Shown in pieces: positions 9,706 through 10,299 of a stretch of 12,996 nucleotides of DNA. The DNA comes from a virus. Lineage: Duplodnaviria; Heunggongvirae; Uroviricota; Caudoviricetes. Each line of letters opens with the position of its first letter. Position 1 is the stretch's first letter. Position numbers and translations under genes: made by a program. The DNA is taken from IMG/VR virus record IMGVR_UViG_2547132488_000019, positions 1 through 12,996 of that record. One strand, given 5' to 3'. The notes beneath the pieces were generated by a model. The model ran no database searches. It saw nothing but the letters and a program-made list of their open reading frames with translations, and was not told the origin of the DNA.

Positions 9706-9732
9706 AAAAACCGCGTGTAAACGCGGTTTTTT
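9706..9732. terminator. Bidirectional rho-independent terminator (AAAAACCGCGT-gtaa-ACGCGGTTTTTT)
   Basis: Perfect 11-bp inverted repeat with a 4-nt loop, flanked by an A-run and a T-run so it works on either strand; lies between the moron stop (9747) and the DNA-circulation start (9690). Confidence 0.65.
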
Positions 9733-9746
9733 ATTAGGTAATAAAA

Positions 9747-10235
9747 TTAACGATCATAATCAACATTATGAGTATCTATTCTACATGATGAATAAGTAAT
9801 TCCGCTTTCACCACTAATATTTACGCCAGCCTTTACCTTCCCTGTTTTCGTAACATCAACAAAGAATTGCCCTCTTGGCATTTTAAATGCAAAAGAGAAA
9901 CCAATAATTTCCGAGTCAAAGTTATTTTCATCCTCACTAATTGGTACAATAAAAGTCAATGGTGCAGATTGTGAGTTATTTTCAAAATCAAAAGCACCAA
10001 TGCTTTTATTAAACTCGTAGGATGCTTTTTTTATTAAAAGAGTTCCACTTGCCGACTTTGCTGGGCATATTACAGACAGTCTATTTATTCCCTCTACATC
10101 TAGATCTATATTCTTATCCGCTGAAGTTTTAACGTTATCTATAAAGTATGTAGCAAGCTGCTTTTCCGTTACTGGCTTCGCAAAGGAGTTTAATGGCAGT
10201 CCTACAGCCAACAACAATATAAACATTTTCTTCAT
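9747..10235 (-). CDS. Secreted/periplasmic protein of unknown function (AT-rich moron)
   Basis: Start moved from the track's GTG (10268) to the ATG at 10235, which has an AGGAGAG SD 5 nt upstream; N-terminus MKKMFILLLAVGLPLNSFA|KP is a Sec signal peptide with an AxA-like cleavage site and no lipobox Cys; composition far more AT-rich than the flanking tail genes. Confidence 0.65.
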   Translation of the reverse strand: MKKMFILLLAVGLPLNSFAKPVTEKQLATYFIDNVKTSADKNIDLDVEGINRLSVICPAKSASGTLLIKKASYEFNKSIGAFDFENNSQSAPLTFIVPISEDENNFDSEIIGFSFAFKMPRGQFFVDVTKTGKVKAGVNISGESGITYSSCRIDTHNVDYDR

Positions 10236-10299
10236 ATTCTCTCCTACATTCAGCACAAACTTTACCACTCAATAACCCTACTTGATTAAAGTAGTTATA

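Follow-up and report, generated by a model that had tools for sequence, protein, structure and literature searches.

What is an AT-rich gene for an apparently exported protein doing inside a phage tail operon? The question is raised by positions 9706-10299 of a 12,996-nt stretch of Caudoviricetes DNA (IMG/VR record IMGVR_UViG_2547132488_000019, positions 1 to 12,996; hereafter the window), where a 162-aa open reading frame (ORF), which we call the cargo gene, lies between the genes for the tail tape measure protein and a DNA circulation protein. The original prediction, made from the letters of the DNA, regarded it as a moron inserted into a Mu-type tail module. Our analysis indicates that the segment is probably a dispensable cassette of the moron type, located in a recombination hotspot of an SfIV-like, Mu-tailed lambdoid prophage of Escherichia coli, and that its product is very likely accessory periplasmic cargo rather than a part of the tail. 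A specific role in superinfection exclusion, i.e. in blocking the entry of other phages, can be proposed only tentatively and by analogy.

The cargo gene is dispensable, since Shigella phage SfIV and E. coli CX21 keep near-identical flanks in which only 24 nt separate the stop codon of the tape-measure gene from the ATG of the DNA-circulation gene. This bears out the earlier statement that the two flanking genes are adjacent in modules of this kind. The SfIV and CX21 flanks share ~94-98% DNA identity with the window and the tape measure is 99% identical at the protein level; according to the title of PMC3851460, SfIV is an isolated and characterised phage. Global alignment with the empty site of SfIV delimits a variable segment that takes in, besides the cassette, the first ~16 codons of the DNA-circulation gene as well as the last two codons and the stop of the tape-measure gene (10300-10306). 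Around this segment we found neither direct nor terminal inverted repeats that would point to transposition, and its borders look like homologous-recombination joints within the flanking genes.

Copies of the segment with 100% identity occur in many E. coli chromosomes and in Escherichia phage vB_EcoM-720R4. The cassette is present in 101 of 5426 complete E. coli genomes (~2%), a related DNA-circulation gene in ~1090. In enterotoxigenic E. coli (ETEC) H10407 the prophage adjoins dusA and combines HK97-type head genes with a Mu-type contractile tail, and its antitermination protein is encoded upstream of the lysis and late genes; these gene types identify it as a lambdoid, SfIV/SfV-like phage. 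In the window, Pfam also recognises a Mu gpP/gp44-like hub protein and, upstream, a tail tube and a chaperone. In E. coli PEC122 (NZ_CM168021.1) an IS1B element interrupts the matched cassette region. A further copy of the cassette resides on a 205-kb conjugative E. coli plasmid (NZ_CP126947.1), so plasmids at times carry all or part of the prophage.

All of the features that had been read from the DNA alone were recovered by our analysis, namely the AT-rich 162-aa frame on the minus strand between the tape-measure and DNA-circulation genes, both of which match their Pfam families, its own Shine-Dalgarno sequence, a Sec-type signal peptide, two cysteines in the mature part and a perfect bidirectional hairpin just downstream (Table 1). 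The cargo gene has a GC content of 0.344 and a GC content at third codon positions (GC3) of 0.26, compared to 0.52-0.59 and 0.54-0.63 for its neighbours (GC/GC3 of 0.516/0.54 for the tape-measure gene and 0.556/0.59 for the DNA-circulation gene). Equally AT-rich stretches of the same length make up 0.6% of the total, and every one of them lies at the cargo gene. The frame does not arise by chance, as the probability of 173 stop-free codons at the local base composition is ~4e-7.

This figure refers to a longer form of 173 aa that starts at an in-frame GTG (9747-10268, minus strand) and is chosen by some gene callers, e.g. for P0001 (MVKFVLNVGENMKK...). The ATG at 10235 is the better start because it is preceded by AGGAGA and because the GTG form buries the signal peptide; the RefSeq form likewise comprises 162 aa (locus ETEC_RS23655 in ETEC H10407). 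The gene is oriented with the late operon and starts 64 nt past the tape-measure stop codon. Direct repeats are present at 9911-9930 and 9965-9984 (core GTTATTTTC, or GAAAATAAC on the coding strand), and their spacing of 54 nt matches an 18-aa in-frame deletion in the metagenomic variant P0002, suggesting that slippage deletions occur inside the cargo gene.

The predicted signal peptide (MKKMFILLLAVGLPLNSFA, followed by KP) shows n-, h- and c-regions of the expected kind, with Lys2 and Lys3, a hydrophobic core of 13 residues (mean Kyte-Doolittle value 2.2) and, in agreement with the -3/-1 rule, Ser at -3 and Ala at -1 of the predicted S-F-A+K cleavage site. A lipobox is absent. As judged from the aligned sequences this layout is conserved, and signal peptides ending in ...A+K or similar are found in all full-length homologues. 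The mature protein is predicted to comprise 143 aa (15.7 kDa, pI 5.2). Its only two cysteines, Cys57 and Cys151, are nearly invariant across the family.

The protein had not been recognised in the original prediction, and our searches place it in PHROG 5586, a family of unknown function (full-length match, E 2.6e-85, residues 1-161 of the 161-position profile). Pfam, NCBIfam and PADLOC gave no family match, and a profile search of PDB sequences returned nothing under E 0.19. A profile search of 1.84 billion representative proteins retrieved 17 family members, while a word-indexed search yielded near-identical E. coli sequences and one 49%-identical Shigella/E. coli homologue (P0007). PHROG 5586 is thus a tiny, uncharacterised family. 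The motifs FKMPxGQFFV, AGVN and GESG are kept at 26-50% identity together with the cysteine pair and the signal peptide. We rejected a match to the pectate-lyase-like family PF12708 as a chance hit (E 0.048, 13.9 bits against a cutoff of 27, found with just one of 11 family members). Three matches in uncultured Bacilli/Firmicutes genomes were set aside as unreliable, with 25-28% identity over ~80 residues and E values of 1e-4 to 2e-5 that are relative to the candidates only.

An AlphaFold2 model computed from an 11-sequence alignment has a predicted local distance difference test score (pLDDT) of 85.9 and a predicted template modelling score of 0.79; an alignment of 3 sequences gave a pLDDT of 41. 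The model shows a helix at residues 24-41 followed by eight strands. Cys57 is placed just after strand 1 and Cys151 within strand 8, and since these strands adjoin in a closed meander barrel, a Cys57-Cys151 disulfide that closes the barrel is likely in the model. No specific structural relative was found in PDB and BFVD.

How old the association with this position is can be judged from homologous loci, which were searched with a 4-sequence alignment. All 37 loci found in IMG/VR carry the gene in the same slot. Diverged clades that share the slot have cargo proteins 44-55% identical to ours, next to tape measures of 45-72% and DNA circulation proteins of 52-72% identity, and the cargo gene is AT-rich in every clade (GC 0.34-0.41 versus 0.47-0.57 for the flanks). 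The constant slot and the comparable divergence of the flanks indicate an old resident that has been repeatedly lost or swapped, and the idea of a recent, one-off insertion has to be given up. More distant homologues (P0018, P0020 and P0021, 26-30% identity) are encoded on phage-plasmid-like contigs beside genes for IncFII-type RepA, ParA-like, toxin-antitoxin and CI/S24-type repressor proteins, again followed by terminators, and P0019 is located past a tape-measure gene and a HIRAN-domain gene. By their gene neighbourhood such sites are typical of lysogeny-expressed cargo and argue against a role in the tail.

Between clades the ratio of nonsynonymous to synonymous substitution rates (dN/dS) is ~0.1-0.35, which is just a rough sign of long-term purifying selection because dS is saturated. 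Close E. coli alleles of the cassette have a dN of ~0.02-0.03 and a dN/dS of ~0.6-0.8, with up to ~2 in some pairs, based on counts as small as 7-10 nonsynonymous versus 1-5 synonymous changes; the tape-measure, DNA-circulation and hub genes of the same genome pairs give 0.05-0.25 at similar dS. The raised ratio suggests relaxed or diversifying selection and fits a protein involved in an arms race.

The slot is also used by other genes. An AT-rich gene whose 176-aa product bears an N-terminal membrane anchor (PHROG 5485, WP_000679479.1) occupies it in 174 E. coli genomes and, with the promoter-like sequence TTGTAA-16-TGnTAGAAT and a terminator, displays the full classical moron layout. A 225-aa lipoprotein with the lipobox LLGGC (PHROG 1353, WP_000866660.1) is encoded there in 54 E. 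coli genomes, with a terminator on the 3' side. In E. coli CX08 the occupant is an OB-fold lipoprotein on the opposite strand that matches PHROG 8545, annotated as 'superinfection exclusion Sie-like', with E 3e-37; the signal peptide of the CX08 ORF has apparently been lost. Including the cargo gene, four unrelated cargo types thus occupy the slot, all with export or anchor signals. In E. coli LZYWN_4 the DNA-circulation gene is 98% identical to that of the window but the tape measure just 24%, which makes the slot a mosaic joint as well, at which the tube/tape-measure block meets the baseplate block. As judged from these loci, it is a recombination hotspot.

The hairpin behind the cargo gene, which lies between an A-run and a T-run, has arms of 11 bp with 100% complementarity and a 4-nt loop, and folds with -20.4 kcal/mol (z = -4.9). 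Its end is 4 nt from the Shine-Dalgarno site of the DNA-circulation gene. A simple terminator scan overlooked the hairpin (9706-9731) because the U-run was taken into the stem. Terminators of unrelated sequence are located 3' of the cargo gene and before the DNA-circulation ribosome site in all of the diverged clades (four others). In E. coli O157:H7 F8092B these two genes are separated by 60 nt (L050, 1847-1906; tape-measure and DNA-circulation genes) that hold just a terminator-like hairpin (CCCACTCCGGTGGGATTTTTT), which is either a native intrinsic terminator of the junction or the scar of a lost cargo gene.

In the sense of Juhala and Hendrix, a moron is defined by its own promoter and by expression from the repressed prophage, as stated in PMC3594210. 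The moron architecture that had been proposed for the cassette holds in part, and the label is largely apt: it is extra DNA compared to SfIV and CX21, of foreign composition and followed by a terminator, but no promoter was found by scan and the terminator may belong to the slot. Several observations weigh against the explanation that we favour. A sigma-70-like promoter was not found by consensus scan of 9400-10700, nor upstream of the gene in four diverged clades. A looser search gave one weak candidate with a poor -35 region, and its conservation across clades amounts to a loose TGGTA-like similarity, a pattern too short to tell from chance. Expression of the cargo gene in a lysogen, which a moron should show, is therefore hypothetical. 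The hairpin of the otherwise empty O157:H7 slot weakens the argument from a terminator of the cassette's own, as the terminator may be as much the slot's as the cassette's. Finally, 'Sie-like' is a database annotation with no test behind the label, and the raised dN/dS, given its small counts, could be plain relaxed constraint. Consensus promoter scans, for their part, overlook many genuine promoters. A strong and conserved terminator in the midst of an essential late operon makes sense if it stops transcripts that are not antiterminated, and this argues, indirectly, for autonomous expression of the cargo gene.

Could the cargo protein nevertheless be a conserved assembly or structural component of this type of tail? 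It holds the same position in 37 of 37 viral contigs across diverged modules, as such a component would. However, it is absent from SfIV with its 99% identical tape measure and also missing from many E. coli prophages in which the neighbouring genes are near-identical, and unrelated proteins take its place in other prophages. A signal peptide would be out of place on a tail protein, since tail assembly is cytoplasmic. Moreover, the distant relatives of the cargo protein are encoded outside tail modules and its AT-rich composition is unlike that of the module. We consider a tail component extremely improbable. The ORF might also be a decaying, non-functional remnant, as the elevated dN/dS among close alleles, in-frame deletion variants and fragments in assemblies (P0002-P0006) and IS1 elements beside or within the cassette in some strains would allow. 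Yet it is intact in the 101 E. coli genomes and at all 37 viral loci, the signal peptide, cysteine pair and core motifs are maintained in diverged homologues, the between-clade dN/dS is low, if saturated in dS, and the fold is predicted with confidence, which makes decay very unlikely.

Two other explanations accept an exported accessory protein and differ in when or on what it acts. The gene could be a promoterless member of the late operon whose product is made in lytic growth only and works in the periplasm as the cell dies. There it might, for example, modulate lysis or, like T5 Llp, mask receptors or block entry and so save progeny from being lost on infected cells or debris. The failure to find a promoter-like site upstream in any clade scanned is in favour of this, as are the late-operon orientation, the start 64 nt past the tape-measure stop codon, the strong Shine-Dalgarno sequence and the constant position across diverged tail modules, which would be expected for a co-evolving operon member. 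However, a strong terminator right behind the gene in every clade, each time of different sequence, is hard to explain without something to terminate. The distant homologues lie within lysogeny and maintenance regions, an alternative cargo of the slot does possess a promoter-like site, and real promoters often escape consensus scans; we therefore regard late-only expression as unlikely. Alternatively, the cassette may serve host fitness instead of phage exclusion, in the spirit of lambda Bor and Lom, as a periplasmic binding or inhibitor protein that helps the lysogen. It could, for example, be an orphan immunity protein or inhibitor directed against lysozymes, colicins or type VI amidases, or a calycin-like barrel that binds small ligands. 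Like many immunity and inhibitor proteins the cargo protein is small and, by prediction, periplasmic and disulfide-bonded, and distant homologues occur in plasmid-maintenance regions, which commonly house general fitness cargo. But no sequence match to inhibitor or immunity families was found, and among the loci examined the family occurs only in phage or phage-plasmid contexts and never as a chromosomal housekeeping gene, so that this role is possible but doubtful.

For the dispensable moron-type cassette that we favour, the specific function with most in its favour, though we propose it with low confidence, would be superinfection exclusion in the periplasm, because of the precedent of HK97 gp15, the T4 Spackle and P1 Sim proteins, the Sie-annotated family in the same slot and the faster evolution of the protein. 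T4 Spackle and P1 Sim are small, are exported with a cleaved signal peptide and act in the periplasm on the incoming phage after adsorption. Spackle is helical, whereas the model of the cargo protein is a beta-barrel. Although no sequence or fold relation to either was detected (PDB, BFVD), their mode of action is the mechanism that we hold most likely for the cargo protein. The product of HK97 gene 15 is encoded by a tail-operon moron beside the tape-measure gene and blocks DNA entry (Cumby et al. 2012, as related in PMC3594210). As far as that account goes, it resembles our case in being an extra gene of the tail operon that adjoins the tape measure, deviates in composition, has an envelope product and is absent from close relatives. 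In contrast to the predicted soluble, exported beta-barrel, gp15 is described there as a small inner-membrane protein of the YebO family with proven expression from the prophage. The two proteins have no sequence similarity.

The lom and bor genes of lambda are likewise prophage cargo for exported envelope proteins in or near the late genes. They differ in that Lom belongs to the Ail/OmpX family of outer-membrane barrels and Bor is a lipoprotein, while the cargo protein has neither a lipobox nor the signature of an outer-membrane barrel. The Sie-like lipoprotein of PHROG 8545 occupies the same slot in a related prophage and is also targeted to the envelope, but it is unrelated in sequence, encoded on the opposite strand and a lipoprotein. 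Eight-stranded meander barrels of the calycin-like/MoaF-like type (4q51, 5hal, avidins, PliC/MliC) are also among the closest known systems. No sequence or fold homology of the cargo protein to characterised members of known superinfection-exclusion or anti-phage defence families was found. The tail-assembly blockers Tab and Tai act in the cytoplasm. As analogues of an exported protein they were rejected (PMC10884400, PMC11364771). The serum-resistance moron orf10 of phiv142-3 (PMC7724020) is unrelated, as the primers used to delete it match nothing in the window. A literature search found no paper naming WP_000738066 or phage vB_EcoM-720R4.

Taken as a mechanism, the favoured reading would run as follows. 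The precursor would be exported via Sec and cut after Ala19, and would fold in the periplasm into an acidic 15.7-kDa protein with an N-terminal helix and an eight-stranded up-and-down beta-barrel, in which strands 1 and 8 are probably held together by the Cys57-Cys151 disulfide. In the lambda paradigm a Q-type antiterminator overrides the terminator during lytic growth. The cargo gene would then be co-transcribed with the late operon, and the Q-type antiterminator of the prophage would let RNA polymerase read past the terminator behind the gene. In a lysogen, a transcript begun just upstream would halt at this terminator and never reach the baseplate genes. The protein could thus act in the envelope of the lysogen and hinder incoming phages while their tail penetration or DNA entry is at its periplasmic stage. 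It is conceivable, though we have considerable doubt, that the slot is dedicated to interchangeable envelope-located entry blockers, and that the soluble periplasmic beta-barrels of PHROG 5586 form a new family of exclusion proteins, which would intercept the incoming tape measure or tail tip in the periplasm and be inherited with the tape-measure block.

If made in lysogens, the cargo protein offers a candidate, open to test, for a new periplasmic factor that excludes superinfecting phages or modifies the envelope. As at least four unrelated envelope-targeted cargo families alternate at this junction, it is a handy place to seek entry blockers against contractile Mu-type tails. The current picture of phage morons is unchanged by this locus, which adds one uncharacterised family and one hotspot.

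Table 1. Coordinates of the cassette, its flanks and the alternative occupants of the slot (window positions unless a locus is named)
Feature	Position	Strand	Remarks
DNA circulation protein (Mu gp43/N-like), 457 aa	8317..9690	minus	downstream flank; PF07157, E 1e-33
Variable segment relative to empty-site SfIV	9643..10306	minus	global alignment; SfIV counterpart 82 nt
Shine-Dalgarno GAGGTG of DNA-circulation gene	9696..9701	minus	
Bidirectional intrinsic-terminator-like hairpin	9704..9735	.	arms 9706-9716 and 9721-9731; A- and T-runs either side
Cargo coding sequence, 162 aa	9747..10235, stop codon included	minus	ATG start; RefSeq WP_000738066.1; PHROG 5586
Predicted Sec-type signal peptide MKKMFILLLAVGLPLNSFA, codons 1-19	10179..10235	minus	predicted signal peptidase I cleavage before K20
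Shine-Dalgarno AGGAGA of cargo gene	10240..10245	minus	4 nt 5' of cargo ATG
Weak extended -10-like motif TGgTAAAGT	10259..10267	minus	sole promoter candidate; looser search; poor -35
Imperfect inverted repeat directly past tape-measure stop codon	10272..10299	minus	perfect hairpin in sister allele L022
Tail tape measure protein, 633 aa	10300..12201	minus	upstream flank; PF10145, E 6e-42
PHROG 5485 gene	L005 3408-3938		E. coli LZYWN_4; also L049
PHROG 8545-type gene	L051 2055-3201		E. coli CX08; IS1A adjoins 5' end
PHROG 1353 gene	L052 1900-2577		E. coli PRO_A-1401-6M-A_ESBL

The inverted repeat at 10272-10299 has a counterpart in the sister allele L022 (5936-5970), where it forms a perfect 13-bp hairpin (AATAACCCTACTT-TAATC-AAGTAGGGTTATT); three substitutions weaken the copy in the window. 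A U-run is absent after the hairpin, and candidate roles would be an operator, an RNA processing site or a stabiliser. In other clades, too, palindromes occur in the stretch from the tape-measure stop to the ribosome site of the cargo gene, but they are unrelated. A search against Rfam found no family anywhere in the window.

Two further observations concern DNA outside the cassette. One clade of related phages (L038-L042, L044 and L047) carries an extra 1.9 kb between the DNA-circulation and gpP/gp44 hub genes (about 7795-9750 in L038), which encodes ORFs of 528 and 94 aa. In the window, positions 1789-2793 on the plus strand encode a protein of 334 aa, in which an N-terminal part resembling ClpP/SDH-type serine proteases is joined to a long acidic C-terminal tail. 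It matches PHROG 21683, of unknown function; its matches to PF01972 (E 3e-6) and NF047768 (E 5e-9) are under and far under the respective cutoffs, and PADLOC gave no match. The gene is located in low-GC DNA, flanked by a DinI-like gene (1271-1519) and a tail-fibre assembly gene. As the H10407 prophage has an invertase and extra fibre-assembly genes in its place, this site represents a second cargo slot near the integrase end.

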